A DNA stretch of 64,000 nt from assembly GCA_041166225.1 (NCBI GenBank), contig JBEEFT010000184.1:6058-70057 (forward strand). Direction: 5' to 3'. Each line of letters opens with the position of its first letter. Positions within the stretch are counted from its first letter, which is position 1. The notes under the pieces are model-generated. The model was not told the origin of the DNA and searched no databases. It was given only the letters and a program-made list of their open reading frames with translations. Source of the stretch: Actinomycetota bacterium. Lineage in GTDB: Bacteria; Actinomycetota; Acidimicrobiia; Acidimicrobiales; JACCXE01. Positions 46,817 through 62,623 of the stretch are shown one piece after another. Position numbers and translations under genes: made by a program.

Positions 46817-47683
46817 TCAGACCTTCGAGACTGCGAACGTGTCGCAGCGGTCCATGCTTTCGGCGCGGTAGCCGGTAAGGAACCACTTCTGGCGCTGCGC
46901 CGCTGACCCGTGCGTCCACGTCTCGGGGTTCACCTGACCTTGCGTCTGTTGCTGGATTCGGTCGTCGCCAACGGCGGCGGCTGCGTCGAGTCCGTCGCGG
47001 ATGTCGGCCTCGCTGAGGTCCTCGATGAATCCGGTCTTCTCGGCGCCTTGCGCCCATCGTCCGGCTAGGCAGTCAGCCATCAACTCGGTGCGCACGCCCG
47101 CGCTTTGCGGGCCGGTGCTGCGGTCACGGTTCGATTTCTCGAGCACGCCGGTGAGGTCCTGGACGTGGTGGCCGTATTCGTGCGCGATGACATATGCCTC
47201 GGCGAACGGGCCGCCTTGCGCGCCGAATCGAGTACGCAACTCGTCGTAGAACGCCAAGTCGATGTACACGAGCTTGTCGACCGGGCAGTAGAAGGGACCC
47301 ACCTCGGTCGACGCTTGACCACAACCCGTGTTCGTCGCGCCCGAGAAGAACACGGTCTTGGCGCCTTGATACCCCGGCAGTGTCTGACCCCAGTAGTCCT
47401 GCACGCTGTTGATGACGGCGACAATGCGGCAGTCTTCGCGCTGATTGGCGTCGTCGCCCGTCGTGCACGACGTCGACAACGCTGCATTGTTTCCTTGGTC
47501 GGTGTTACCGGTATCGGTGCCCCCGATTGCCAAGTTGCCGCCGCCACCCCCGCCGAGGAGGTTCAGCACCAACACGATTACGCCGATGAGACCGCCGCCA
47601 CCGAGGGCGAGGCCGCCACCGCCCATCCCGCGTCGATCCGAGACCTGGGACGAGTCGAGCTGCGCGTCACGGCGAAATCGCAT
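46817..47683 (-). CDS. YpfJ-family neutral zinc metallopeptidase (PF04228-like)
   Basis: The N-terminus [19 protein letters not shown] is followed by a Gly-rich TM region. ..GPFYCP.D..VYIDL.F and the HExxH site, [11 protein letters not shown], are present. Confidence 0.85.
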
Positions 47684-47713
47684 GCCGACACTCGTACCGC
47701 TCGGTGGCTGCCG

Positions 47714-48796
47714 TTAACCGCTGGCGCTCACCGCGAACGCGTCAATCACCCGCTCGGTCCACCGGCGAAGATCGTCGTAGTGCTCGGCCGGCGTTTTTCC
47801 GAGCCGCACCACGATCAAGTCGAGCGCCGGTACCACCACGATGCGTTGGCCGTCGTACCCGACGCAACGAAACGTTCCGTATCGATCACCGCCCGCCCAC
47901 CAATGCGCGCCGTAGTAGTTGTCGTTTTCCTCGTCGTAGGACCGGATTCGGCGGGCGTGGTCTACCCAGCCCTGAGGCAGGAGCCGCTTGCCGTCCCACA
48001 CACCGTCACGCAGATAGAGGTAACCGAAGCGAGCAAAGTCTTGGGCGGTTGCATACACGTAGGAGCTCGCGATCCAAGTGCCGGCGTCATCGAAGGTTGC
48101 CGTTGCGCTACGCATCCCGATCGGCGCGAACAACCGCGCTTCAAGAAATCGCCGATACGCATCACCGGCACCGACAAGGCGCGCCACCGCGCCAGACACG
48201 ATGTTCGTTGTCCCGCTCGAATAGTTGAAGCGCTTACCGGGAGGTGCCGCGAGAGGGCGGTCGGCCGCGAACGTGGCGACGTCCGCTTTTCCCTCGCCGA
48301 ACAACATGTTGATCACGTCGGAACGCTCGCCGTCGACGTAATCCTCGACGAAGTCGAGCCCGTCGCGCATGTCGAGGAGGTGCTCGAGCGTGATCACGCG
48401 GCGGCGGTCGTCGTCTCCTGACCACAGCGGCACTCCGAGCGGCTCGTCCAGCGCGAGCCGGCCCTCGTCGACGAGCATGCCGACCAGCGCATGCAGCATC
48501 GACTTGGCCATCGACCAGCTCAGCAGCGGAGTAGTCGCGTTGATCGGCTCGTCGGCACGATCGAAATGTTCGATCGTGCTCGCGTAGCGCTCGGCGACTA
48601 GGCGACCGCGATGCACGATCACGGCGGCGAACGTCGTCGCGCAAGGACCGGATGCGTCGAACAACTCGTCGAGCAGTGCGTCGAGGGCTACTCCGGCAGC
48701 GACGCCGCCCCGCGGCCAATCGATGGTCGGCCACGGCACGCCACCGGGTTGCGGCGGCAACGGAAGCAGGGGTGCGCTGAACGGATCGATGGCCAT
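47714..48796 (-). CDS. Serine hydrolase, beta-lactamase/transpeptidase-like family
   Basis: The SxxK motif is in LLSWSMAKSMLHALVGMLV, and ..YSSGTTN.. is the YxN-like motif. The start is the ATG at 48796 (MAIDPFSAP). Confidence 0.75.
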   Translation of the reverse strand: MAIDPFSAPLLPLPPQPGGVPWPTIDWPRGGVAAGVALDALLDELFDASGPCATTFAAVIVHRGRLVAERYASTIEHFDRADEPINATTPLLSWSMAKSMLHALVGMLVDEGRLALDEPLGVPLWSGDDDRRRVITLEHLLDMRDGLDFVEDYVDGERSDVINMLFGEGKADVATFAADRPLAAPPGKRFNYSSGTTNIVSGAVARLVGAGDAYRRFLEARLFAPIGMRSATATFDDAGTWIASSYVYATAQDFARFGYLYLRDGVWDGKRLLPQGWVDHARRIRSYDEENDNYYGAHWWAGGDRYGTFRCVGYDGQRIVVVPALDLIVVRLGKTPAEHYDDLRRWTERVIDAFAVSASG

Positions 48797-48845
48797 CCCG
48801 ATTCGTGGTTTAGTGCATCGTGCGCTTCGACACCGTTGGCCGCCC

Positions 48846-49352
48846 ATGAGTTGGCTTAGCGAGCGTTCCCGCAACGGCGGCATCGACGAGGTGCCGCTAC
48901 CAAGCGGCGCCGGCCGGTTGTGGCTGTGCGGCAAGCACCTGATCGGGCCTGATCCCGAAGCCACGCTGTTGCGGACGGGCGCGTCGACGGTGGTGTGTCT
49001 CAACGACGAAGCCGAATTGGTGCACCGGTTTCCGGAGTACGTGCGGTGGCTGCGCGCCAACGCGGACGAGCGGGCGGTGTGGTGGCCCGTGCACGACATG
49101 CATGCGCCTGGCGGCGACGGGTTGGGTTCGCTCGTATCGCTTGTGCGCGAACGCCTCGATGCCGGCGAAGGGGTCGTGGTGCATTGTGGCGCTGGGATGG
49201 GACGTGCCGGATCGGTCGCAGCGGCGGTGTTGATCGCCTACGGCGAGCAGATAGACGACGCGCTGGCCCACGTCGCCGTGAGCCGCCCGGGGGCCGGGCC
49301 GCAAACGATCGCGCAGCAACTCGCGTTGGAGGAATACGCCAAGTCGATGTAA
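48846..49352 (+). CDS. Protein tyrosine/dual-specificity phosphatase (CX5R)
   Basis: The P-loop is VVHCGAGMGRAGSVAAAVL. The start is the ATG at 48846 (MSWLSERS..). Confidence 0.8.
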   Translation: MSWLSERSRNGGIDEVPLPSGAGRLWLCGKHLIGPDPEATLLRTGASTVVCLNDEAELVHRFPEYVRWLRANADERAVWWPVHDMHAPGGDGLGSLVSLVRERLDAGEGVVVHCGAGMGRAGSVAAAVLIAYGEQIDDALAHVAVSRPGAGPQTIAQQLALEEYAKSM

Positions 49353-49998: not shown

Positions 49999-50799
49999 TC
50001 AATAGTGGCCGAGTGAGCCGGTACGGCGACATTGCCGTACCGACCACTCGAAACCCCAGAACGCCACCGGCACCAGCACCACCGTGAACAGGCCGAGCGC
50101 TAATGCGTCGCGCCCGATCGCACCAAGGTCCGGGTTCGGAACGAGCGCGAGCCGGACGCCTTCGAGGCCGTGGCTCATCGGCAGCGCGTACGCCAACAGC
50201 TGGAACGGGCGCGGTAACACCGAGATCGGGTAGAGCACGCCGCCCAACAGCCCGAACGCGGACCCGACGAAGCCGAGCAGAGCACCGGTGCGCTTGACCA
50301 CCATGATCAGCCCCGCGGCCGCTAGGCCCACCGCGCTGAACGCAGCGAGGGTCAACAACAACATGCCGCTTGCGATCGCCAGGTTCCCGAGCGCGATTTT
50401 GGCGTGAAACAACAGCGCTCCGAGCGCGATGTACAACACGAGCTGGACCGTTGCGAAGATGAACGGCCACGCCGCGCCACACACCAGCAATAGTTTCGGG
50501 TCGTTCGGGGTGACGAGTAACGCCTCCATCGTGCCCATCTGCTGTTCTTGGCCGAGACTTCCGGCAAAGCTGCCCAAGGCCACCGAGAAGTAGCTCAGGG
50601 CCGCAGTTCCGACGAGCGCGAACGTGAAATAGTCGCCGCCGTAGGGACGCAGGGCGGTGGTGTTTCCCGGCACGAGACGACTCAGGAAGCCCGCCGACAG
50701 GAGCGTCGAGAAGATTCCGGCGAACTGCGTGATGAGCGCGAGGCGATACGTCTTTTCCTGGCGGAAGTCGCGGCGAACGAAGGCACGAATCAACGTCAC
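49999..50799 (-). CDS. ABC-2-type exporter permease
   Basis: The GTG at 50799 overlaps the ATPase stop (GTGA). The six-TM ABC-2 pattern begins VTLIRAFVRRDFRQEKTYRLALI.... Confidence 0.8.
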   Translation of the reverse strand: MTLIRAFVRRDFRQEKTYRLALITQFAGIFSTLLSAGFLSRLVPGNTTALRPYGGDYFTFALVGTAALSYFSVALGSFAGSLGQEQQMGTMEALLVTPNDPKLLLVCGAAWPFIFATVQLVLYIALGALLFHAKIALGNLAIASGMLLLTLAAFSAVGLAAAGLIMVVKRTGALLGFVGSAFGLLGGVLYPISVLPRPFQLLAYALPMSHGLEGVRLALVPNPDLGAIGRDALALGLFTVVLVPVAFWGFEWSVRQCRRTGSLGHY

Positions 50800-51578
50800 T
50801 GCGCCGCCAGCGCTTTCATTGCCCGGCCCAACGTCGTTTTGTTGACGTTCGCTACGTCGTCGACGATCTCGCCCTCGCGCAGCACGCTCACTCGCTCGCA
50901 CACGTCGGCTGCCTCGACGACGTCGTGCGTTGTGAGCAGCGTGCTGACCCCGGCGTCGTCGCGCAGGCGCTTGATCACTACGTGAAATTCCGAGCGCGAA
51001 ACCGGGTCGAGGCTGCGCGTCGGTTCGTCGAGCAGCAGGATCATCGGCCGGTGTAGCAGCGCGCGGGCGAGGCCGAGTCGGCGTCCCATCCCCTGGGAGA
51101 AGCCCGACACCGGCCGATCCGCGTGTTCGGCCAGATTGACCATCTCGAGTGTCGTCTCGATGATTTCGTCCGGCGCGGCGAGGCGGTGCAACGCGGCTGC
51201 AAACTCGAGATTCTGGCGAGCCGTGAGCCGCCAGTACAGGCTGCGCTCGTCACCAGTGCTGAACCCGATCAGCCCGCGAACCGCATCACCTTCGCGCTCG
51301 ACGTCTCGGCCACCAACCAGCGCGCTGCCGCTGTCGGCGGTGACGAGTGTGGCGAGGATGCGCAGGAACGTGCTCTTGCCTGAACCGTTCGGCCCCATCA
51401 CGCCGTGGACCGTGTCCCGGGCGACGATTAAATCGACGCCGCGCAAAGCGTTGACGACACCCTTGGGCCGGCCAGGCCAAAAGCCCCGCACGTAGAAGCG
51501 CTTCTCAACGCCCGTTGCGTCGACTGCGTTGGCACCGAAGGGCGGGTCTGTGCGTATGTCGGGCGAGGCGGTTACCAC
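50796..51578 (-). CDS. ABC transporter ATP-binding protein (DrrA/ABC-2 partner type)
   Basis: Walker A is GPNGSGKST, the signature is FSQGMGRRLGLARAL and Walker B is ILLLDEPTRSLD. Confidence 0.9.
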   Translation of the reverse strand: MVTASPDIRTDPPFGANAVDATGVEKRFYVRGFWPGRPKGVVNALRGVDLIVARDTVHGVMGPNGSGKSTFLRILATLVTADSGSALVGGRDVEREGDAVRGLIGFSTGDERSLYWRLTARQNLEFAAALHRLAAPDEIIETTLEMVNLAEHADRPVSGFSQGMGRRLGLARALLHRPMILLLDEPTRSLDPVSRSEFHVVIKRLRDDAGVSTLLTTHDVVEAADVCERVSVLREGEIVDDVANVNKTTLGRAMKALAAQ

Positions 51579-51596: not shown

Positions 51597-52019
51597 GTGA
51601 CGTCGGCCCGGCTGCATCTGCGAATGACGACTTTGCTCGTCGCGTCCGCAGTGTCGTTGCGTCGCCGGGACACTACCGAGACGCTGCGCCGCATGCTTGA
51701 CAGCACGCGGCGTTGGCCGCCGTTTTCGGGGCCGGAGGCGCTCCGAGCGCTGCGGGTTCCGGCGCGGGCGCTGAGGGCAAACTGTCTCACTCAATCTGTT
51801 GCCCTCACGGTTGCGTTTGAGCGCGCAAACCAGAACCCGACGCTAGTTCTGGGGTGCAGGCGCTACGAGAACCGAAAATGGGGCGCGCATGCCTGGGTCA
51901 TCGTCGGCTCGGACGTCTTCGACGCTATTCCGAGCGGTGCTCACGAGCCGCTCGCGCGGCTCACCGCGGAAACCGAATGGGTGCCCGCCCCGATGCCGCC
52001 CAAGCGGCAAGCGGATTAG
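51597..52019 (+). CDS. Lasso-peptide-type B2 protein (transglutaminase-like Cys protease, PF13471-like)
   Basis: ..ANCLTQSVALTVAFERANQNPTLVLGCRR...WGAHAWVIVGSDVFD carries the Cys...His...Asp triad context seen in McjB-C-terminal/B2 proteins. It starts at the GTG at 51597. TACATT (51583-88) lies 8 nt upstream, which suggests a leaderless transcript. Confidence 0.8.
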   Translation: MTSARLHLRMTTLLVASAVSLRRRDTTETLRRMLDSTRRWPPFSGPEALRALRVPARALRANCLTQSVALTVAFERANQNPTLVLGCRRYENRKWGAHAWVIVGSDVFDAIPSGAHEPLARLTAETEWVPAPMPPKRQAD

Positions 52020-52141
52020 AGAATGAGGCTGATGTTGATGGCCTCGGCCTGACGGCCTTGAGTCCACTCTTCGATCGAGCCGTAATCGCTCAACTGCGGC
52101 GTTTCGTAGCCGTCTTCGGTGGTGTTGATTGCGTCGTTCAT
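52016..52141 (-). CDS. 41-aa RiPP precursor with a canonical lasso-type leader and an atypical 13-aa core (not in the ORF track)
   Basis: GGAGGA lies 6-7 nt upstream of the ATG (52141..52139). The product is MNDAINTTEDGYETPQLSDYGSIEEWTQ|GRQAEAINISLIL. Y12-x-x-P15-x-L17-x3-G21-x5-T27-x28 fits the lasso leader motif YxxPxLx3Gx5Tx exactly, and Gly follows at core position 1. The stop TAA (52018..52016) overlaps the B2 stop TAG (52017-52019). Confidence 0.75.
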   Translation of the reverse strand: MNDAINTTEDGYETPQLSDYGSIEEWTQGRQAEAINISLIL

Positions 52142-52224
52142 TTCTCTCCTCCGGTCGTACCTGTCGAGAACGCACCAACTGACCTTTTCTTGCGTAAAGA
52201 TCTAGAAGATGAGAGTTTCTTGAG
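52142..52224. promoter_or_regulatory. AT-rich divergent control region between the precursor gene and the PqqD/kinase operon
   Basis: By my count, 52181-52224 is about 39% G+C in a window that otherwise looks roughly two-thirds G+C. It contains TTTCTTG twice (52186-92 and 52216-22), the palindromes AGATCT/TCTAGA (52198-52206) and AAGAT twice. Confidence 0.5.
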
Positions 52225-52506
52225 GTGCGACGCTTTGTCCCCAGTAGTGACGTGATCATCCATGAAGAAGAGGGCGACGCCTTCTTGCTGCATGTTGAGT
52301 CAGGACGATACTACGGACTCAACCGTTCTGCACTAGTTGTTTGGAACGCCGTCGTCGCAGGGGCCGATCCGGTCGACGCATTAACCCAGAAGTGGCCGCA
52401 GCGACAGCCCGAAACATTGCGTTCCGACGCAGAAGCCCTGGTCACGGGGCTGTTAAACGCAGGCTTGATCACCGAGCAGACCGAGGCGCCGGGACCCGCT
52501 GCGTGA
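52225..52506 (+). CDS. PqqD-family RiPP recognition element (lasso B1-type chaperone)
   Basis: 93 aa. ..EEGDAFLLHVESGRYYGLNRSALVVWNAV..G....AL........ETLRSDAEALVTGLLNAGLI is the PqqD/RRE pattern. Confidence 0.8.
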   Translation: MRRFVPSSDVIIHEEEGDAFLLHVESGRYYGLNRSALVVWNAVVAGADPVDALTQKWPQRQPETLRSDAEALVTGLLNAGLITEQTEAPGPAA

Positions 52507-53417
52507 CCGCAGCCGAGACGTGGCCGGGATGCCACGGCGTGCGCCTCGTGGGCGAGCCGGTCGATCTCGGAACATCTGCTGGGTCGCCTCTGGCTGAAGC
52601 AACCATTCGTTTCGGCGCTGTAGCGGTAGGCGACTCTGATCACCTGTGGACGCAACACGGCGAGGCCGTTGTCGACGGCGAGCACTTCGAAGTCGACCGG
52701 GTGATGCGCCAACGGGGCCGCGGGGCTTACGTCCTGACCGGTAGTGGTGGCCCCACGATGGAGGTTGACCAGGACGCCGCCACCATCACGATTGAGGATG
52801 GCGACGAGGCCGTCCAGCTTCAGCTGCTGGCGACTTTCGGGGTCCCGTTGATCTTGCACACCACGGACGCGCTGGTGCTGCACGGCTCGGCCTGCGCGCT
52901 TGGTGACCGCACGATCGTGGTCTGCGGAGAGTCGGGTTCGGGCAAGTCGACGCTTCTGGTCGGGCTTGCGGACGCCGGTTGGACCCCGATTACCGAAGAT
53001 CTGTGCGCGGTCGATTTCCGGCCCCAGACGCCGCACGTATGGAGCGGCCCGCCATGGGTGCGCATCGGGCACGGCAAACCCGGCCCCGTCGGCAGCGCGC
53101 AGCGCTTCGGTTCCGCGTACAAGACGGGGTGGGACATAGCGGCGTCGCAAACGCCAGTGCCGCGCCCGATTACCCACGTGGTGTTGCTCGACGCCCCCGG
53201 CGGCGGCGACGCGCTGCTCGAGCCGGTCCCGGCGGCGGTCGCGATCCGGCGCCTCGCGCCGCACGGTGTTTGGCTCGGCGACCAAGACGAGCTCGGGCGG
53301 CGTCTGTTCGGACCTATCGCCGATCTAGTCGCAAAAGTGCCTGCGTTCCGGCTTCGCATGCCCCGCAGCGACTCATGGCTTGACGAGGTCCCGGGGCTTC
53401 TCGCGGCCCGGCTCTAG
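52503..53417 (+). CDS. HPr-kinase-related serine kinase (HprK C-terminal-domain-like)
   Basis: The GTG at 52503 overlaps the PqqD stop (GTGA). ALVLHGSACALGDRTIVVCGESGSGKSTLLVGLADAGWTPITEDLCAV matches the HprK P-loop core. Confidence 0.75.
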   Translation: MTAAETWPGCHGVRLVGEPVDLGTSAGSPLAEATIRFGAVAVGDSDHLWTQHGEAVVDGEHFEVDRVMRQRGRGAYVLTGSGGPTMEVDQDAATITIEDGDEAVQLQLLATFGVPLILHTTDALVLHGSACALGDRTIVVCGESGSGKSTLLVGLADAGWTPITEDLCAVDFRPQTPHVWSGPPWVRIGHGKPGPVGSAQRFGSAYKTGWDIAASQTPVPRPITHVVLLDAPGGGDALLEPVPAAVAIRRLAPHGVWLGDQDELGRRLFGPIADLVAKVPAFRLRMPRSDSWLDEVPGLLAARL

Positions 53418-54530
53418 CGGGGCGCGGCTGCGACCAGTAGCGATGCGCCACGATCGGCGGATGAGGCGCCCGCCGAGAATCGCCGCCAGCTTTACCGATG
53501 CCGCGGGGCCCTGGCGCCCGATTACGTCGCTCAGTACCAAGGTCGCCTGCGCGCGACGTTCGTCGACCAGCGCGTAACGCAAACTCATTCGGATTGCGCT
53601 GTCGCGCCGCATTACCGGCCAGTCGGCGGACAGCACGGGCGCAATTGCGGCCCGCCGTTCTCGGCCACCACTGACGCGTCGCAGTTCCTCCGGTGACGCG
53701 ACGCCGAGGCGTTGGGCCTGGGCGAGGGCCACTGCCACGGCAGTGGGGCAGCGCGCCTCGTAGGCGATGCGGCCGACGCCGTCCCAGTCGACGCCGTCGC
53801 GCTGCTCGGCATCGGTGACGACCATGGCGATGTCGACGGTCCACAAGAGACGCGCGAATACGTGGAACGGCTTGGCCGCGTGCGCCGCCAGCATCACAAT
53901 CTCGATTTCGGGCGGCAAGTCGAATGCCGGCGCTCCGTACAGCGTCGTGTTTCGGCGGGCCGCCCACAGTTGGTCGCTCGTGAGGCGATTCGCCCGCGAA
54001 CGCCAGAACGCGAGGTCGCGATGCAGGTCGATGGGCAGGCCGGGCAACGCCGGGTGGGTCAAGTCGATCTCGTGGGGCCGGCGCTCGGGTAGCGGGGTCC
54101 AGCCTGCGCCGCCGAGCGCGCCAACCGCCGGCTTGATCTGCTCGGGGGGCAGCACGAGATCGATGTCGTCCATCGGACGCAGGCCGGGATCGGGATAACG
54201 GCTCGCAAGCGCGCCGCCCTTCATTACGAGGGCGGGGTGTCCGGCGTCGGCCAGCGGCTGCAGAGCGAGCGGCCCGATGCGGGGCAACATCAGACGGCTC
54301 TGCGCGTGACATCGCCCGAAGTCGTTCTGCAGGACGTCGACCCAGCGCTCGCCGTCGGCCGCGATGCCGGCCTGCTCGAGCGCGCGCCACAGCAGCGGCG
54401 ACACGCGTTGCACGAGAGCGATGTCGGCGGCTTCGTTGAGGTCGGCGCCCGCGTCGACGGCAGCGAGGACCTCGGCCGGGGATGGTTCGCGTCGGCATGC
54501 GGCCCATAGCAGCGCCGCAGTCGGGTTCAC
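53373..54530 (-). CDS. Uncharacterised nucleotidyltransferase family protein (PF14907/NTP_transf_5-like)
   Basis: ..LVMKGGALASRYPDPGLRPMDDIDLVLPPEQ...AL...GW matches the family core. It is convergent with the kinase gene and overlaps it by 45 nt. Confidence 0.7.
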   Translation of the reverse strand: MNPTAALLWAACRREPSPAEVLAAVDAGADLNEAADIALVQRVSPLLWRALEQAGIAADGERWVDVLQNDFGRCHAQSRLMLPRIGPLALQPLADAGHPALVMKGGALASRYPDPGLRPMDDIDLVLPPEQIKPAVGALGGAGWTPLPERRPHEIDLTHPALPGLPIDLHRDLAFWRSRANRLTSDQLWAARRNTTLYGAPAFDLPPEIEIVMLAAHAAKPFHVFARLLWTVDIAMVVTDAEQRDGVDWDGVGRIAYEARCPTAVAVALAQAQRLGVASPEELRRVSGGRERRAAIAPVLSADWPVMRRDSAIRMSLRYALVDERRAQATLVLSDVIGRQGPAASVKLAAILGGRLIRRSWRIATGRSRAPLEPGREKPRDLVKP

Positions 54531-54603: not shown

Positions 54604-55866
54604 ATGAAGCCGACTACGCGGTTCTTGCTTTCAGGTGCGGCGGCCGCCGCGAATACCGCCAACGCCATCCGTCCCGCGGCGCGCTCGGGTCCGGTGTCGT
54701 TCCCGTCGTTCGCGTTCGGCGTCGTGCCCTCGGAGTGGCCGACGCAGGTCGGGATCGTGCAACTCGCAACGGCCGCGCTGCTCGCGCGCAAAGGCGGGCT
54801 GCGCGGATGGCGCGGCGCCACTGGCGTCGCGGCGTACGCGGCGTCGGTCGCCGGGCTCGTGCACATGCACCGCAAGGCGGGCGAAGCCGGCCGCATTTTG
54901 GAGCAAGCGCTCGTCGACGAGTTGGGCGCGGATTACCGCAAGCGCATCGACGAAGCGTTCACGCCCGCCACTGAAGTGCCGTTGACGCGTCAACAACTCG
55001 TGCGACCCGACCTCGGGATCCGCAAGCGTTACCGCTCGGCGCGCAACCTCAGTTACGGCGACGCCGGCCTGCGTAATCAGCTCGACGTCTGGAAGCGTGC
55101 CGACCTCCCCGCCGACGCCAAGGCGCCGGTGCTGTTTCAGGTGCACGGCGGTGCGTGGACCGTCGGGATGAAGGAAGGCCAAGCGGAGACGACGATGGGC
55201 CACCTCGCCGAACGAGGGTGGGTGTGCGTTACGACGAACTACCGGCTGTCGCCGCGCTCGACGTGGCCCGACCACATCGTCGACGTCAAGAAGGCGTTGA
55301 TGTGGACCAAGCAGCACATCGCCGAACACGGCGGTGACCCTGACTTCATCGTGATCACCGGCGGATCGGCCGGGGGGCACCTCGCGTCGCTCGCAGCGCT
55401 CACGCCCAACCTGGCCGACTTCCAGCCCGGCTTCGAGGACGCCGATACTTCCGTGCAGGCAGCGGTGCCCTTCTACGGCGTGTACGACCTCGTCAACCGT
55501 CACGGAACCAGTCGCGCCGACATGGAACGGCTCATGCAGACGCGCGTGTTCAAGACGCGGTTGTCAGAGGACCGCGCCCGCTGGGAGCAGGCGTCGACCA
55601 TCAGCCACGTGCGGCCCGACGCGCCGCCGTTCTTCGTGCTGCACGGCACGAACGACTCGCTCGTGCCGGTGGAACAGACCCGCAGCTTTGTCGACGAGTT
55701 GCGCAAAGAGTCGACGCAGCCCGTTGTCTACGCGGAACTGCCGGGCGCCCAGCACGCTTTTGAAATCCTGCCGTCGGTACGCGCTTACGCGTGTGCGCAT
55801 GCCGTCGAGCGCTTTCTCGCCGTCATCCGTAGCGAGCACAACGCCGACGTCGCCGCGAATCGCTAA
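54604..55866 (+). CDS. Alpha/beta-hydrolase-fold esterase/lipase (HGG-type) with N-terminal membrane segments
   Basis: The oxyanion motif is VHGGAWTVG, the nucleophile elbow is ITGGSAGGHLA, and a late ..HGTNDSLVP.. ..AQHAFE supplies the Asp and His. Confidence 0.8.
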   Translation: MKPTTRFLLSGAAAAANTANAIRPAARSGPVSFPSFAFGVVPSEWPTQVGIVQLATAALLARKGGLRGWRGATGVAAYAASVAGLVHMHRKAGEAGRILEQALVDELGADYRKRIDEAFTPATEVPLTRQQLVRPDLGIRKRYRSARNLSYGDAGLRNQLDVWKRADLPADAKAPVLFQVHGGAWTVGMKEGQAETTMGHLAERGWVCVTTNYRLSPRSTWPDHIVDVKKALMWTKQHIAEHGGDPDFIVITGGSAGGHLASLAALTPNLADFQPGFEDADTSVQAAVPFYGVYDLVNRHGTSRADMERLMQTRVFKTRLSEDRARWEQASTISHVRPDAPPFFVLHGTNDSLVPVEQTRSFVDELRKESTQPVVYAELPGAQHAFEILPSVRAYACAHAVERFLAVIRSEHNADVAANR

Positions 55867-58670
55867 GCGGTTATCTCAACGGCGGCGCCGTTGAACTCGC
55901 CGTTCTCGTCGACCACCGATCCACGTTTGATCGTGGCGATATCGCCGCGGCGCAGCGCCACATTCGCCGTCCAGCGTCCGTTCACGAGCTTGGCCCGCAT
56001 CGCGAACGTGCGACCAGACGACCGGTGTACGGACACCGTCGCCACCCGCACGTCGCCGTTCGACGCCCAACCACGGAACGTGCACGTCTTGCATATCGGG
56101 CGGCCGCCGTCGTCGTGGATCGCGGCGATCGACGACTTATACGTACGCGGGTACGTCGCGCCAGCCGTGAATGACACTGCGCCGTTGCGTTCGACGCGCA
56201 CCCCGTCGACACGAACGCCTTCCCAAGGCCGAACCGAAAACACACGCGACGTGAGCGCGTAGCTCTTCGGGCCCGCTGCAGTTCGGTGACGACCGTTGAT
56301 CACGAACCGATACGAGCCGGTCGGAACCTGTCCGGCGGCGATGTTCCGCGGGAAGAAGTCTGCCGCTTCGAAGTTGGCCGTCCACAGCCATTCTTGGCGG
56401 TTCGTGCGATACGGGATCTGGCTCTGAATGCCCTTCGGCAACGCGAGCACCGTTTGCACTTCGCCGGTTTGGTCGGCATAGGCGGTCCACGTTTTGCCCA
56501 CGAGTCGTTCGACACGGACCACGGGCTGATCGACGTCGTTGTTGCCACCCCGCCACTTCACCGTTGCCGCGTCGAACCGGTTGATCGATTTCGGTTGCCC
56601 CACGATTTCGGGCGACCCCGCGTCGACAGGCAGCGACGCATTCCACGCGTCGTACGCCTCGCTCGCGGCACGCCCAACAGCCTGGGCCGTTGCCTGTTGA
56701 CGCGCCTCGTCGGCCACCGCGACAACTGCGAGCGGCTCGTCCTTAGGCAGCGGCGCGCCCTGCAGCGCGGCGGCCATGCGCACGAGGCGCGTCACCATGT
56801 AGTCGGCGGTGTGCGGCCCGTATGAGGTGAGGGCTTTGCGGTAGTGATCGAAGCTCATGAACACGCGGTAGCTCACGGTGTAGCCGTTGTAGTCGCCGGT
56901 GTGGCCGAGCCCGACCGTGAGCTTGTAGCCGGGCGCACCGAGGCTTTGGATCTCTTCCTTGGTGAAGTTGCCCTTGATCGCGGCGGGGTCGGCGGGCTCG
57001 GCGTTGGCCGTCGCCGCGTTCGCAGCCGCGTCCCACCCGTTGGCGTCGTTGTGCACCTGCGCAACCATCCGGCGATAGGCGGCGTCGGTGACAACAAGGC
57101 TGCGGTCGTTGAAGACCTTCGCCTGGGGCAGCCCCGGGTTCGGGCAACGCCACGACGTGTCGGGTTTCTGATCGCAGTACGGCGACCAGTCGAAGCCGTC
57201 GTAGATGTTGCCGCGGGTCGCGTCGGTGCGGCTCTCGAGGTTCTTGATGAGGTCGACCTGCGGCTCGCACGAGCATGACGCGAGAAGGATGTCGCCGAGG
57301 CGCACCGCTTGCAGATGGATGCGGGCGTTCTCCTCGAGGATCCCAGCCGATGGGGCGTCGTAATGCTCGGGGACGGGCAGACCAAGCTTCTTCATGGTCT
57401 CGAACGTCTGGCTGGCGTTGTCGTTGCTGTCGCCGATCGGTCGTTCGCAGTCGGGCAGGCCGGCGACGGGTACGCCGGGATTACCTTCGACCGTGGGCTC
57501 GGTCCGGCAGTTGCTCACCGCTGGATAGGGGTGGGACACGGGACCGGGCACCCAGCCGTCGAACATGGCCACGGGGAAGTTCGAACTCCATGGGATCGTG
57601 CCGTGATTCGCGCCGATCTCATTGAACCCCGCGACCACCCTGTCGGCCAAAAATCGCGCGTGACGCTCAGCCTGCGCGTAACCCTGGTGCGCGAACGCTC
57701 GCACGATCCCGCCGCCGATCCGGTCGTTCAGATCTTCGGCCGGTTCGGAACTGCCAACGTCGCCCTGGCTGAACACGAGCGGCGCGTTCAGATCGCGCTG
57801 AACGAATCGTTCGAGCGGCGCGATGTAGTCACCGCTGATCAGGTTGTAACCGTCGAGTGACTCGGGGTGAACGCCGTAGTTCATCCACACGGCGAGTGGC
57901 TTGGGGGTGGCGCCGGAGATGTCGTCGAAGCGCATCACGACGAGTCCGTTGTCGTTCTCGTACTGCGGGTAGCCCGACGGACTGCCGTCGTCGGCGATCG
58001 CTCCGCCCGGGGCGTTTCGATAGTCGCCGCCCGCGGCCACTGTTGTCGCGCCGACGCGTACGGGCTTGAGGTTGGCCTCGGCGTGTTCGATCGCCTGGGC
58101 CATCGCACGGGCCTGGTACTCGAACATTCGCAGGTCCATCACGTCTTGGAACAGCCACGGGCCCGGGGCGGCGGTTGTGTAATACGGCGAGTTGTGGTTG
58201 TGCGTCGCGCTGTAGAGGATGTGATCGGCGGTGACGTGTGAGCCGGCCGTGGCCAGCAGTTGGCCGACGCGGCGCACGAGCATGTCCTGGGCCAAGTAGT
58301 TGTCGCTCTTGAGCAACGCGATCGGCGCGCCGCTCGTGCCGGCGATGACGATGGCGCGCACCGACAGGCGCGACTGCACGCCGTAGCTCGGCTGGCGTTT
58401 CGTGGCGTGGAGGTTCGGGTCGCTGTCGGCGCTGAGCAGGAGCGCAGGGTCGAGCGTGGGCGGGGTGAGGTTGGCGAGATCGTCGGCCCAGTCGTCGACC
58501 TCCAAGCCGGGACGGCTGCTTGCGTACTGACCTGCCGATGCTCCGACGTTCCAGGTTGCATCTACGACACCGACACCGGCGCGCACGCCCGCCGGTGCTG
58601 CTTGCGCGTGACCCGGGACCGCGGCCAGGAGCGCGGCGATTACCGCAGTTGCGACCCCCCAGAACTTCAT
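55863..58670 (-). CDS. Secreted neutral/alkaline-ceramidase-like protein with a large C-terminal extension
   Basis: The ATG at 58670 overlaps the upstream stop (ATGA). The signal is ..AAVPGHAQA|AP. RAGVGVVDATW.., SRLSVRAIVIAG....IALLKSDNY.., and ILYSATHNHNSPYY resemble the neutral-ceramidase N-terminal domain. Confidence 0.6.
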   Translation of the reverse strand: MKFWGVATAVIAALLAAVPGHAQAAPAGVRAGVGVVDATWNVGASAGQYASSRPGLEVDDWADDLANLTPPTLDPALLLSADSDPNLHATKRQPSYGVQSRLSVRAIVIAGTSGAPIALLKSDNYLAQDMLVRRVGQLLATAGSHVTADHILYSATHNHNSPYYTTAAPGPWLFQDVMDLRMFEYQARAMAQAIEHAEANLKPVRVGATTVAAGGDYRNAPGGAIADDGSPSGYPQYENDNGLVVMRFDDISGATPKPLAVWMNYGVHPESLDGYNLISGDYIAPLERFVQRDLNAPLVFSQGDVGSSEPAEDLNDRIGGGIVRAFAHQGYAQAERHARFLADRVVAGFNEIGANHGTIPWSSNFPVAMFDGWVPGPVSHPYPAVSNCRTEPTVEGNPGVPVAGLPDCERPIGDSNDNASQTFETMKKLGLPVPEHYDAPSAGILEENARIHLQAVRLGDILLASCSCEPQVDLIKNLESRTDATRGNIYDGFDWSPYCDQKPDTSWRCPNPGLPQAKVFNDRSLVVTDAAYRRMVAQVHNDANGWDAAANAATANAEPADPAAIKGNFTKEEIQSLGAPGYKLTVGLGHTGDYNGYTVSYRVFMSFDHYRKALTSYGPHTADYMVTRLVRMAAALQGAPLPKDEPLAVVAVADEARQQATAQAVGRAASEAYDAWNASLPVDAGSPEIVGQPKSINRFDAATVKWRGGNNDVDQPVVRVERLVGKTWTAYADQTGEVQTVLALPKGIQSQIPYRTNRQEWLWTANFEAADFFPRNIAAGQVPTGSYRFVINGRHRTAAGPKSYALTSRVFSVRPWEGVRVDGVRVERNGAVSFTAGATYPRTYKSSIAAIHDDGGRPICKTCTFRGWASNGDVRVATVSVHRSSGRTFAMRAKLVNGRWTANVALRRGDIATIKRGSVVDENGEFNGAAVEITA

Positions 58671-61600
58671 CGTCGTGACGTTAGGTGTCTGCCGACCAGC
58701 GCGACCACTAGAAGCGCCGCGGGAATGAGCCCGTTGACGTTGGAGCCCGTCGCCGGCAACGTCTCGGCTGCGAGCACGCGTGTCGCAGGGAAGCCGACGT
58801 TGCCGGCGTCGTCGACCGCTCGCACCGAGACGGTAAGCGGACCGGTGCCCGACGGCACCACCACGGTCGCTTTCGTCGCGCCCGCGGCAAGTTCGAGTGT
58901 CTGCGAACCGACGGTCACGCGGTAGGTGTGGGCCGCTCCGCATGCGCCGTCGTCACCGGTGCGCGTGAACTGCACGTCGACCTGATCACCGACGCGCGAG
59001 ACACTCGAGATCGACGGCGTGCCGGGGCGGTCGGCGTCGGTGCCATAGGCGCCGGTGTTGTGGAGGTCGTGGCCGTTCTTCGGCCACTCGGGCGTTTGGC
59101 ACGCCGCGCCGTCGGTATGCCACAGGAACAACTGTCCGTCGCGTGTGGCGAGCGCCAGCTCGAGTTTGCCGTCGCCGTCCATGTCACCTGCACCCGCCGA
59201 CGACACCGCCCAGCCCGCTGTGAACTTCGGGAACGTCGGCGCTGGACGCCCGCCGTCGCCGTACGCAGCGAGGTCGTACATCGCCGAGGCTTGCACCACC
59301 TCGGGCCGCCCGTCACCGGTGACGTCGAGGATCACCGGTGTGTTGATGAACTGAAGGTCGTTCATCTGCGCGGGAAAACCGGGCGCGAATTGGCCGGTGG
59401 TCGCGTCCCACACCGAGATGTGATCTTCGGCCAGCAGTTGCTGTTCCGGGAGGATCACGTCGAGGAGTCGGCGGGCGCCGGTGGAACCCATCGCGAAGTT
59501 GATCTGCTTGCTCGCACCCACGTGTCCGAACACGCCACCGCCCAGCGATGGGATCGTTGGCAGGTCCGTTGCCGTGCTGCCCAGACCGGGCACTGTGGTC
59601 GCCGCGGTTTTGTACCGGCCGTCGTTGCCCGCGCCGTAGTAGCTCGAGCCGTTCGCGTTCAACAGGTACGCCGGGCTGCCGATCGACGCGGTACCGATCT
59701 CACGTTTGCCGTTACCGTCGACGTCGGCCATCACCGGTTGGCCGTTGGAGCCTTCACCCACGTACGGCAACAGTTCGAGGCTCAACATCGCGATGGGGAC
59801 GGGCCATCCCGTGACGTAAGCCTGGTCATCGGGGTGGGGTGTGGCGGCCGAGCGCGGAGTTTGGGGGTGCGCGGTGCCGTCGTGGTGCAACAGGTACGTG
59901 CGCGTGTTGCCGGTGGCGTTGACGGCTCCGATCGCGGCCACCACGGGGTCCACGGTGTTCGGAGTTTCCGCGTACTCCTCGTTGACATTGGTTGCGACTT
60001 CGAGCGTGCCGTCGCCGTCGACGTCACCCACCGACGGCGTCGCGATCACTTTGCGACCGAAGTGCGCCTCGGCGTCAGCGGTGAAGGTGATGCGGTGGGT
60101 GACGGGGTCGACCGACTTGACCTTCGCGGGGTCACGCAGCAACACCGGCCACCCCTTCACCGGTGTGCCGTCGGCGTGCCACGCGTAGATGTGGCCGTCG
60201 TTCGAGCCCGCGATGAGTTCGAGGCCGCGCGTTGTCGGATCGAGATCGGCGGCCGCAGGTTGTGATGTGAAGGCGCGGTCGACCGTGTTGAGGTGATCGC
60301 GCACGTCGGGCGCGCCGTCGTCGTCGCAACGCGCGTTGCGCACCACTTGGCACGCCGTCTCATACGAGAAGGCACGGTTGCCGCGCACCGGGAACCCGTT
60401 CACCGGCCGGCCGTCGTTGTGCCAGACGTGCAGGTCGCCTTCGATGTCAGCGACACCAACCTCAGGCGTGCCGTCACCGTCGAGGTCGGCAACCACCGGC
60501 GCGCCGGTGAGCACCGCGGCGTACACAGTCTTCGGGACGTCGCCGCGGGTGTACGCGTTCGCACCGCTGCTGGGCAGATTGATCGCGCGTGTGTGGACCG
60601 GCCATCCGGCGGCTTCGGTGCCGTCGGCTTTGAAGGCGTGCACGAAGCCATTGCCGTCGCCCATCACGAGTTCGTCGCGCCCGTCGTTGTCGAGGTCCTC
60701 GAACGCCGGCGACCCCGCACCGTCGCCTTCCAACGCGCGCGGCCACCCGGGAACCAGCGTTGGGTCGTCGTGGGCGAACGCCTGATGCTGGGCGATGGCG
60801 GTTTGCCACGGTTGGTCGCCGGTCTTGACGACGACCCGAATTCGGAACGCGTCCTTCTCGGGAAGCGAACGTGCGGTGGGGTCGTCGGCCGGTGTGTAGG
60901 GCGGCACGGAGTGGTCGATCGCGGCGCGCACCTCGGCCAAGTTGATGGTGGCGAGCGTGCCCTCGACGGCGTGGTTGGCCGCAGCGTGTTTGACCGTGGT
61001 CCACTTGTCGGCCGCGGGCCAGCGCGGGGGTTGCACGCCGGGCGCATATTGAACTTCCCACGTGAAGTTCGTGGCCCGGGGCGCCGCGACGCGCCCGGTG
61101 ACCTTCACGACGCCGCGCGCAGGAAGCGGTTCCCACCAGGCCGGCGCGGTGATGTCGGCTTCGGGTGGAATGTGGCCCGCGGCGACGAGGCCAACAAGGT
61201 CGTCGCTGCGGATCCGACCCCAGCCACTGATCTGATCCCACCCCGCCGTCGTGACGAAACGTGCGCTCGCGGGAAGCGTGGTGACGAAATTGTTGGGCGG
61301 GCCGGGAGGTTTGGGTGTGGAGAAGTCGACGTCCTGCGCGGCGAGGCGGAACAGTTGCTTTGCTTCCTCAGCCGAGAGCGGGCGCCCCGATGCGTCCGGT
61401 TTGATCACGCCCTTTTGCACCGCGTTGCGCGCCGCCGAGTACAACAGCCCGGCCATGCCCGCGCTCTGCCCGACGGCGTCGGACGAACAAGACGACGAGG
61501 CGACGGTCACCCAGATGTAACCGCCGAAGTTCGTACACCCGTTGAACGCGAGCCACGTCGCTGGATGCTGCACCGTGTCAACGGAATGGGTGACCGAGTT

Positions 61601-62623
61601 GACGACCATCGAGTGGTTGAGCGCTGACGGTTGGTTGTGGTGACCGGCGGACTCATCGGCCGCCGACGCGACGAACAGCACGCCGTGGTGGTACGCGTAG
61701 TCGACCGCGAGTTGCGCGAAGTGCGTGTTGTTCAGCGCACCAAGGGCACTCTGAATCACGCTCGCACCGTTGTCGGTTGCGTAGACCGCGGCTTCGGCGA
61801 AGTGGTTCGAGTCGGCCACGAAACTGTCGCCGACCCGCATCTCCATCAGCGTGCAGTTGGGGCACTGCGGATCGAGCTTGGTGCCGATCTCGCCGGCCGA
61901 GTCCTCGGATTCGCCGGTGCCGTGGCTGTAGTCCACGTCGTCGTTCGGATCGTTGTCGCCCTCGAAGAAGTCCCACCCTGAGATGTCGTCGACGTAACCG
62001 TTGTGGTCGTCGTCAACGCCGTCGGAGAAGGCGCGGATCACATCGCCCGGGTCGATGAGCGTGTTGTTGTCGTACGGGTTCTCGTGGACGCGTGAGTCGT
62101 GCGCGTAGTCGGCCACGGTGAATACGCCGTCGCCGTCAGCGTCGTAATCCTGCACGCTGCCGCCCCGCCCGCCGCCGTTGGGCTTAGGCAACTCGCCGCG
62201 ATTCAACGCGAACTTCTTCATCAACTCCGGGCGGTCTTCGTCCCAGCGAATCCCGCTGTCGGTGACCGCGATCACGGTGTCGGGTCGTCCGGTGGTCGTC
62301 TCCCACGCACGGTTCGTGCGCGGGCCGCGCACACCGAAGAACTCTTGTGGGTTCAGATTCACGAGCGGGTCGTAGTCGGCTTCGCCCGGCTTCGACGCGT
62401 AGTCCGACAGCTTCCACGTGCCCCGGCAGTCGAAGTTCGCAGGAAGGTCACTGCCCGGGGGGCGGGGCTGGCCCGCGGCCACCCCGTCGCACGCACCGTT
62501 CCTTATGTGGAGACGGGAGTAGTCGTAGACCCCGCCGGGCTGCACGCCGAACGGGAAGACCGCATGTGCCGGACGGGGCAGGACGAGAAGAAGCAGAACG
62601 ACAACGATTCCCCAACGGCGCAT
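58667..62623 (-). CDS. 1318-aa LPXTG-anchored S8 peptidase-like protein with multiple FG-GAP/VCBS repeats
   Basis: The signal is ..LPRPAHA|VF. The S8 Asp (VIAVTDSGI) and His (DYSHGTGESEDSAG) contexts are present. There are at least six D-x-D/N-G-D/N-G-x-x-E repeats (DLDNDGRDELV, DLDGDGTPEVG, DVDGDGTLEVA, DVDGNGKREIG, DVTGDGRPEVV, DMDGDGKLELA). The C-terminus is LPATG followed by a hydrophobic helix and HLTSRR. Confidence 0.8.
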   Translation of the reverse strand: MRRWGIVVVLLLLVLPRPAHAVFPFGVQPGGVYDYSRLHIRNGACDGVAAGQPRPPGSDLPANFDCRGTWKLSDYASKPGEADYDPLVNLNPQEFFGVRGPRTNRAWETTTGRPDTVIAVTDSGIRWDEDRPELMKKFALNRGELPKPNGGGRGGSVQDYDADGDGVFTVADYAHDSRVHENPYDNNTLIDPGDVIRAFSDGVDDDHNGYVDDISGWDFFEGDNDPNDDVDYSHGTGESEDSAGEIGTKLDPQCPNCTLMEMRVGDSFVADSNHFAEAAVYATDNGASVIQSALGALNNTHFAQLAVDYAYHHGVLFVASAADESAGHHNQPSALNHSMVVNSVTHSVDTVQHPATWLAFNGCTNFGGYIWVTVASSSCSSDAVGQSAGMAGLLYSAARNAVQKGVIKPDASGRPLSAEEAKQLFRLAAQDVDFSTPKPPGPPNNFVTTLPASARFVTTAGWDQISGWGRIRSDDLVGLVAAGHIPPEADITAPAWWEPLPARGVVKVTGRVAAPRATNFTWEVQYAPGVQPPRWPAADKWTTVKHAAANHAVEGTLATINLAEVRAAIDHSVPPYTPADDPTARSLPEKDAFRIRVVVKTGDQPWQTAIAQHQAFAHDDPTLVPGWPRALEGDGAGSPAFEDLDNDGRDELVMGDGNGFVHAFKADGTEAAGWPVHTRAINLPSSGANAYTRGDVPKTVYAAVLTGAPVVADLDGDGTPEVGVADIEGDLHVWHNDGRPVNGFPVRGNRAFSYETACQVVRNARCDDDGAPDVRDHLNTVDRAFTSQPAAADLDPTTRGLELIAGSNDGHIYAWHADGTPVKGWPVLLRDPAKVKSVDPVTHRITFTADAEAHFGRKVIATPSVGDVDGDGTLEVATNVNEEYAETPNTVDPVVAAIGAVNATGNTRTYLLHHDGTAHPQTPRSAATPHPDDQAYVTGWPVPIAMLSLELLPYVGEGSNGQPVMADVDGNGKREIGTASIGSPAYLLNANGSSYYGAGNDGRYKTAATTVPGLGSTATDLPTIPSLGGGVFGHVGASKQINFAMGSTGARRLLDVILPEQQLLAEDHISVWDATTGQFAPGFPAQMNDLQFINTPVILDVTGDGRPEVVQASAMYDLAAYGDGGRPAPTFPKFTAGWAVSSAGAGDMDGDGKLELALATRDGQLFLWHTDGAACQTPEWPKNGHDLHNTGAYGTDADRPGTPSISSVSRVGDQVDVQFTRTGDDGACGAAHTYRVTVGSQTLELAAGATKATVVVPSGTGPLTVSVRAVDDAGNVGFPATRVLAAETLPATGSNVNGLIPAALLVVALVGRHLTSRR

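Follow-up and report, generated by a model that had tools for sequence, protein, structure and literature searches.

The 64-kb stretch of actinobacterial DNA analysed here (part of contig JBEEFT010000184.1; hereafter the window) carries a compact gene cluster in which a P-loop kinase of the HprK/PEPCK fold and a PF14907-type nucleotidyltransferase (NTase) stand beside lasso peptide machinery and a small precursor gene. The cluster is probably (about 60%) a self-contained pathway for a peptide made by ribosomes and modified after translation (RiPP), derived from lasso machinery but without a macrolactam synthetase, whose linear product would be phosphorylated at Ser10 of the core and then decorated by the PF14907 enzyme. 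The most likely product is a short linear peptide that carries its modification on a single invariant Ser; it would be an actinobacterial relative of the linear polyphosphorylated peptides (LPPs) of Bacillota, cyclase-less systems described in May 2026 (Popov et al., Nat Commun 2026, PMC13381572).

Related loci were mapped at 12 genome positions (metagenome-assembled genomes of uncultured Actinomycetota), in 20 metagenome loci and in four further contexts. The conserved unit was a seven-gene module composed of an ABC-2 permease and its ATPase, a B2 leader peptidase, a 41-residue precursor, a B1 protein (the RiPP recognition element, RRE), the kinase and the NTase. The arrangement B2(+), precursor(-), B1(+), kinase(+), NTase(-) was kept at 12 of 12 genome loci and in those metagenome loci that were long enough, apart from the PF14907 gene at the two-Cys loci described below. 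This gene order recurred in approximately 35 independent loci with unrelated flanks and kinases that were 36-73% identical, and the catalytic residues of all four enzymes were invariant across that range. As the genes have been kept together with their catalytic residues, the module is maintained by selection and does not represent a lasso cluster in decay. The ABC-2 pair lay beside the cluster in the window, and did so in many relatives too (L001/L003, L006-L008, L011, L014, L019, L023, L024, L026, L033, L034 and L039). All of the approximately 35 loci come from uncultured Actinomycetota, and the compact cluster is conserved in uncultured soil actinobacteria.

The predicted precursor scored 21.3 bits against the lasso leader model NF033521 (cut-off 19), was preceded by a strong Shine-Dalgarno sequence (GGAGGAGA) upstream of its ATG, and had orthologues in all related loci. 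The leader consensus was YE[AT]PxL[ST][ED][YF]G[ST]IEEWT-x, with the motif present at every locus. As the initial annotation had stated, the predicted 13-residue core of the window, GRQAEAINISLIL, ends in Leu and has Ser10 as its sole hydroxyl residue; its sole acidic residue is at position 5. Comparison of 25 distinct cores of 12-15 residues (the 16-residue core of L039 being additional to these) revealed a conserved tail, [IVL]-x-[IVL]-S/T-Φ-Φ-Φ, which can be extended by a G or P. The anchor residue of this tail was Ser in 24 of the 25 cores and Thr in the other, and was the sole S/T/Y in 12; the conserved Ser stood three or four residues from the core C-terminus. The C-terminal residue itself varied (L, I, F, G or P) and was never Ser or Thr (0/25).

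These counts bear on the expectation, raised in the initial annotation, that a kinase acting on this peptide would differ in regiochemistry from the known examples. The annotation had correctly stated that HprK homologues place a phosphate on the C-terminal Ser of precursors of the paeninodin type and that further decoration can follow; the kinases act on the linear precursor, and in pseudomycoidin PsmN adds hexose to the phosphate. A site on the internal Ser10 has strong comparative support from the cores and a precedent in LppK, which polyphosphorylates the internal Ser3 of LppA (PMC13381572). On this comparison the internal Ser is strongly favoured as the target of the kinase.

The GTG start of the kinase at 52503 had been proposed to be coupled to the stop of the PqqD-type B1 gene, and indeed start and stop share the sequence GTGA. 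The same start was found in 20 homologues (M-x3-5-WPGCHGVRL) and was also chosen by a separate gene call made on a metagenome contig of identical sequence. Throughout the orthologous family the kinase shared its strand with B1 and always came after it, beside the precursor, usually with a stop/start overlap.

By sequence, the likeness of the kinase to HprK is remote: it scored 30.9 bits against TIGR04352 (cut-off 200), and PF07475 (HPr kinase/phosphorylase) gave no match at E <= 0.01. A profile of the family searched against the PDB sequences returned HprK/P (1jb1) as its top match (E 2.5e-4), in an alignment spanning His127, the P-loop GESGSGKS and E165-D166. The structural model, with a predicted local distance difference test (pLDDT) score of 93, matched the folds of PEPCK and HprK/P, and the residues invariant in the homologue alignment included H127, G145, G147, K148, S149, E165 and D166. 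The family is sharply bounded, with approximately 107 clusters (90% identity) at E < 1e-66 followed by a drop to 1e-13; an exhaustive search gave 60 representatives (50% identity) at E <= 1e-30 within a superfamily of approximately 23,000 HprK-like proteins. The nearest outgroup members fell below every curated NCBIfam cut-off, and second-tier relatives matched TIGR04352, TIGR04355 and TIGR04249, all under cut-off. Homologues carry the PF27840 'ScmC' label, on which a literature search found nothing useful.

The NTase matched PF14907 (NTP_transf_5) with an E-value of 1.8e-32 and 113.3 bits (gathering cut-off 31.2). K104-G105, D122 and D124 were invariant, and the Pol-beta-type G...DxD motif was intact. 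The model (pLDDT 93) gave Foldseek matches to LnuA, ANT(2'')-Ia, TglT and FKRP, all of them weak (E > 0.01). A search of the NTase profile against the PDB sequences gave no match, nor did an exact-sequence look-up of the protein; the corresponding look-up of the kinase returned the identical metagenome contig. A literature search for lasso peptides with PF14907 found nothing useful. Judged by their invariant motifs and folds, the kinase, the NTase and the B2 protease look active.

The convergent arrangement of kinase and NTase with a 45-nt overlap, noted in the initial annotation, was found exactly as placed there, and of the 26 entries with both stops readable, 24 likewise had a tail-to-tail overlap of the two genes, of 4-83 nt; L015 and L039 had one too, of 8 and 15 nt, respectively. 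In the window, B2 shares 4 nt (52016-52019) with the precursor, and the genes of the module alternate in strand, with the NTase, precursor and ABC genes on the minus strand and B2, B1 and the kinase on the plus strand. Antisense transcription through the overlapping partners is possible.

Four loci (L020, L021, L023 and L024) formed a subfamily with two Cys in the core (e.g. ACQSLVCISLILP and GPCSNLICISIILP), and at none of the four was a PF14907 gene found. At L020, L021 and L023 the convergent, stop-overlapping slot of the NTase was filled by a GT4 glycosyltransferase, which in L023 overlaps the kinase stop by 4 nt. A convergent 390-aa open reading frame (ORF) at L024 is not an NTase and has no Pfam match; the true downstream gene there is GH5 hydrolase-like, and a methyltransferase gene also lies downstream.

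PsmN offers a functional reference for the slot. It was modelled on ANT(2'') structures, which the window NTase model also matched, and its DxD residues (D134/D136, equivalent to D122/D124) are required for the attachment of one or two hexose units to phospho-Ser. A GT4 enzyme in the NTase slot fits PsmN-type hexose addition of this kind. Together with distant homologues in polysaccharide loci, the replacement points to glycosyl chemistry for the step that the NTase would catalyse.

The lasso side of the cluster is represented by the B1 RRE, the B2 Cys protease and a leader that has the YxxPxL motif and a Thr at position -2; the Asn-synthetase-like macrolactam synthetase (C protein) that defines a lasso cluster is absent. 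No reading frame of the 64-kb window, or of L001-L014, contained the SGGxDS PP-loop motif, no Asn-synthase-like protein was present among the large ORFs of the window, and no Asn_synthase Pfam match occurred in the neighbourhood contexts returned. In total the search covered 64 kb here and, in approximately 35 loci, as much as 10 kb on either side. The sole match of a looser search across all loci, a PP-loop-like motif in L029, belonged to Rho factor and not to a cyclase.

The cores were also examined for lasso features. The window core does not have the combination of an N-terminal Gly, Ala, Ser or Cys with an Asp/Glu acceptor at position 7-9 that is expected of a lasso core, and none of the 25 cores had a conserved acid at positions 7-9. 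Gly1 was found in 19 of them and Glu at position 5 in five, while Asp and Glu were wholly lacking in 11, so that much of the family cannot form a lasso isopeptide. A different cluster was observed in L017 (6623-10851), with a PqqD protein, a B2 protease, a precursor whose lasso-like core ends in Ser (…TLTFGNGDNPAEGDQYNPAGCVS), an HprK-like kinase and a 618-aa protein that has an S-adenosylmethionine (SAM) methyltransferase domain at its C-terminus; an Asn-synthase match was absent across 14.5 kb of that locus.

From these data we infer each chemical step, the order of the steps and a dependence of the kinase on the RRE. The YxxPxL motif of the leader would be bound by B1, and the HprK-fold kinase would use ATP to phosphorylate the internal Ser10 of GRQAEAINISLIL, possibly more than once. 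The PF14907 enzyme would then decorate the phosphate, most likely with a hexose or another sugar and less likely with a nucleotide. The B2 Cys protease would cut off the leader after Thr(-2)-Gln(-1), and a 13-residue hydrophobic phospho(glyco)peptide would be exported by the ABC-2 transporter. RRE-guided delivery of the substrate, which the initial annotation read from the coupling of the two genes, may or may not occur: adjacency of B1 and the kinase was conserved across loci, but the known lasso kinases are reported to need little besides the target Ser.

Several observations weigh against this pathway. All characterised lasso-associated kinases target a C-terminal Ser, and deletion of LppN was without detectable effect in a heterologous host (PMC13381572). 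Outside its own family, matches to the window kinase fall to E 1e-13 or weaker, and the characterised HprK-like RiPP kinases are only remotely related to it. Target binding or membrane insertion, and not modification, could account for conservation of the Ser-containing tail. Finally, distant PF14907 homologues were found in polysaccharide-biosynthesis loci without an RRE, protease or precursor (L016, 10001-11305, and the P0241 context), and in the P0241 context an HprK-like protein was also present, so that distant homologues of kinase and NTase occur together in a polysaccharide locus free of RiPP genes. These homologues (27-44% identity for the pair) show that the kinase and NTase are not intrinsically peptide-specific. 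They would also suit a reading in which the two enzymes use a substrate other than a peptide, for example an envelope glycan, beside a minimal B1/B2/precursor unit, or in which the cluster is a decaying lasso remnant; the LPP clusters of Bacillota are likewise embedded in capsule loci (PMC13381572). Such a reading is improbable given that the orthologous kinase always sits behind B1 and by the precursor in many unrelated contexts, and decay is contradicted by the invariance of the catalytic residues noted above.

Other rivals accept the peptide as substrate and differ in the chemistry. The PF14907 protein might be a true nucleotidyltransferase that adds no sugar and places a nucleoside monophosphate on Ser10 or phospho-Ser10, or a phospho-alcohol from a CDP-alcohol in the manner of FKRP/LicD-type enzymes. 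The Pol-beta-type fold, the intact G...DxD motif and the nearest folds (the O-nucleotidyltransferases LnuA and ANT(2'') and the CDP-ribitol phosphotransferase FKRP) would suit this, but all of these fold matches are weak, the sole genetic evidence for a member of the family, PsmN, is for +162 Da hexose units, and the GT4 replacement and glycan-locus homologues favour sugar chemistry; this alternative was judged unlikely. Phosphorylation could also be an activation step that converts phospho-Ser to dehydroalanine, as in class III/IV lanthipeptides, with the two-Cys cores then forming a thioether to the Cys two residues upstream (C-I-S). Sequential phosphorylation by a kinase and elimination is established RiPP chemistry, and a Cys stands at Ser-2 in all four two-Cys cores (CISIILP, CISLVFG, CISLILP). 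However, the conserved module has no lyase or cyclase homologue, most cores lack Cys and the known HprK-type RiPP kinases leave stable phosphates, which makes an elimination route improbable as well.

The initial annotation had spoken of a missing cyclase and proposed that the NTase-fold protein might take its place by adenylylating Glu5 or the C-terminal carboxylate. Capture of the acyl group by the N-terminal amine or by Ser10 would then give a macrolactam, a head-to-tail cycle or a small lactone. The cyclase is indeed absent while B1, B2 and a core with the frequent Gly1 are present, and adenylylation would formally match cyclase chemistry. This framing did not survive comparison of the loci, since Glu5 is not conserved, many cores lack any side-chain carboxylate, the two-Cys subfamily has no PF14907 gene (with GT4 in the slot at three of its four loci), and the DxD motif of the homologous PsmN serves hexose addition in a system whose ring is closed by a separate cyclase. 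Known lasso rings have 7-9 residues, and closure at position 5 would give a smaller one. Activation of the C-terminal carboxylate, the sole variant left, is formally possible, but the C-terminal residue varies, and replacement of the cyclase by the NTase is very improbable overall. Less probable still is an ordinary lasso cluster whose cyclase gene lies at another place in the genome: curated models assign the leader, B1 and B2 to the lasso type, but no cyclase lay within the region searched at any locus, many cores have no acceptor Asp or Glu, and no acid is conserved at positions 7-9. The preferred reading remains that of a phosphorylated and further decorated linear peptide.

Coordinates of the cluster features in the window are given below.

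Features of the cluster, numbered from the first nucleotide of the 64-kb window
Feature	Position	Strand	Remarks
ABC-2 type exporter permease	49999..50799	-	PF01061, E 4.9e-16; start placed by inference at the 4-nt overlap with ATPase stop
ABC transporter ATPase (DrrA-like)	50796..51578	-	PF00005, E 4.6e-26
Lasso-type B2 leader peptidase (transglutaminase-core Cys protease)	51624..52019	+	NF033537, PF13471; alternative start GTG 51597
Precursor peptide	52016..52141	-	41 aa; leader MNDAINTTEDGYETPQLSDYGSIEEWTQ 52058-52141; core GRQAEAINISLIL 52019-52057
Core Ser10 codon	52028..52030	-	Predicted modification site; conserved anchor, modification itself inferred
B1, PqqD-type RiPP recognition element	52252..52506	+	PF05402, E 8.6e-10; alternative start GTG 52225
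HprK/PEPCK-fold P-loop kinase, distinct actinobacterial family	52503..53417	+	304 aa; homologues carry PF27840 'ScmC'
Kinase Walker A / P-loop	52926..52949	+	GESGSGKS
Kinase/NTase tail-to-tail coding overlap	53373..53417	.	45 nt
PF14907 (NTP_transf_5) nucleotidyltransferase-fold enzyme	53373..54530	-	385 aa; PF14907
NTase DxD metal-binding motif (D122-I-D124)	54159..54167	-	Invariant in 36 homologues

The B2 protein scored 41.8 bits against NF033537 (lasso_biosyn_B2; cut-off 33), and its Cys53 (xCLxQ) and His89 (HAW, followed by D/E) were invariant in 23 orthologue rows. The closest solved relatives of B1 were the lasso B1 proteins TbiB1, TfuB1 and PbaB1. The best NCBIfam match of the ATPase was TIGR01188 (drrA), under cut-off. 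The GC content of the region is approximately 66%; that of the precursor (0.55) and the third-position GC content (GC3) of the PqqD gene (0.65) lie below the GC3 of approximately 0.8 of their neighbours (52016-52506). The divergent spacer between precursor and B1, in the window (52142-52251) as in L003, L004, L009, L015 and L019, keeps a near-palindromic TTGCGCAA-like element preceded by GAACGCA. The element could be a promoter or operator. Promoter, terminator and Rfam scans of the cluster gave nothing above background.

The kinase and NTase had been named as the only candidate tailoring enzymes, which holds within the conserved module; an esterase and a phosphatase lie nearby but outside it, and were kept beside the cluster only in close syntenic relatives. 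The flanks (46817-49352 and 54604-62623) encode a Zn metallopeptidase, a beta-lactamase-fold protein, a dual-specificity phosphatase, a LipQ-like esterase, a ceramidase-like protein and a 1318-aa ORF, for which the gene call on the identical contig gave only faint or weak FG-GAP repeat matches. These genes are not part of the module and showed synteny only with the closest relative (L001/L003).

It is tentatively proposed, with somewhat less than even confidence, that the family forms an actinobacterial RiPP class of its own, derived from lasso machinery through cyclase loss in an event independent of the LPPs of Bacillota. Its products, processed by B1 and B2, would be lipophilic linear phospho-glycosyl (or phospho-nucleotidyl) peptides of 12-16 residues with the Ser three or four residues from the C-terminus and an internal-Ser kinase, and the interchange of PF14907 and GT4 would mark the PF14907 enzymes as phosphate-directed glycosyl transferases. 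The replacement of NTase by GT4 is a natural experiment pointing to sugar transfer. As the cores are very short and contain a single conserved Ser, the regiochemistry of the kinase and the activity of PF14907 enzymes (PsmN, LppN) are directly testable by mass spectrometry. Cyclase-less RiPPs with a kinase and an NTase would extend beyond the Bacillota, to which they were reported to be restricted, and a lasso B2 protease would serve a non-lasso product. Such clusters would be misclassified by genome-mining software that infers 'lasso' from B1, B2 and leader motifs.

Among known systems, the HPr kinase/phosphorylase family (PF07475; TIGR00679) has its fold and active-site motifs in common with the window kinase, which does not reach the curated score. 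The larger superfamily of HprK/P and HprK-like proteins of approximately 300 aa (HprK-related kinases A/B, SynChlorMet ScmC) likewise has the His, GxSGxGKS, (D/E)D and PEPCK-like fold, but the presumed substrate of the window kinase is a RiPP precursor and not HPr. Canonical actinobacterial lasso clusters with split B1 and B2 (fusilassin TfuB1, TbiB1) have in common with the window cluster the leader YxxPxLxxxG...T(-2), the RRE and the Cys and His of B2, whereas their cyclase and ring-forming core are both lacking here. The paeninodin and pseudomycoidin (PsmK/PsmN) systems unite B1, B2, an HprK-like kinase and a PF14907-type NTase, as does the window cluster, and their kinase acts on the linear precursor. 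They also have a cyclase, an Asp/Glu ring acceptor and a C-terminal Ser target, whereas the window family lacks a cyclase, and its 25 cores have neither a conserved acid nor a C-terminal Ser.

The closest parallel is with the LPP clusters, which comprise an RRE, a kinase resembling HprK, an NTP_transf_5 (PF14907) protein, an SpI-type leader peptidase and an MsbA-like exporter (PMC13381572). A discrete lasso-type RRE, HprK-like kinase, PF14907 enzyme, ABC exporter, YxxP leader motif and internal Ser (the phosphorylation site shown for LppA, a predicted one here), and the absence of a cyclase, are common to both. The LPP family is defined by its SpI peptidase (SipW-like; archaeal-type signal peptidase I, LppS), whereas the window cluster has a lasso B2 Cys protease, and no signal peptidase match was found among the module genes or the Pfam lists of their neighbours. 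The exporter is MsbA-like in LPP clusters and a two-gene ABC-2 type here. LPP precursors are 35-200 aa long with variable cores (45 aa in the studied case) and a Ser near the N-terminus, in contrast to cores of 12-16 residues with the Ser near the C-terminus. The LPP leader, YxxPxVLxHQxIxFETxxS, differs from that of the window family beyond YxxP. LPPs are restricted to Bacillota according to their authors (PMC13381572), whereas the window family is actinobacterial; no literature description of an actinobacterial B2-dependent version was found. The cluster would work like an LPP pathway, but lies outside both the peptidase-based boundary of the LPPs and the definition of a lasso cluster.

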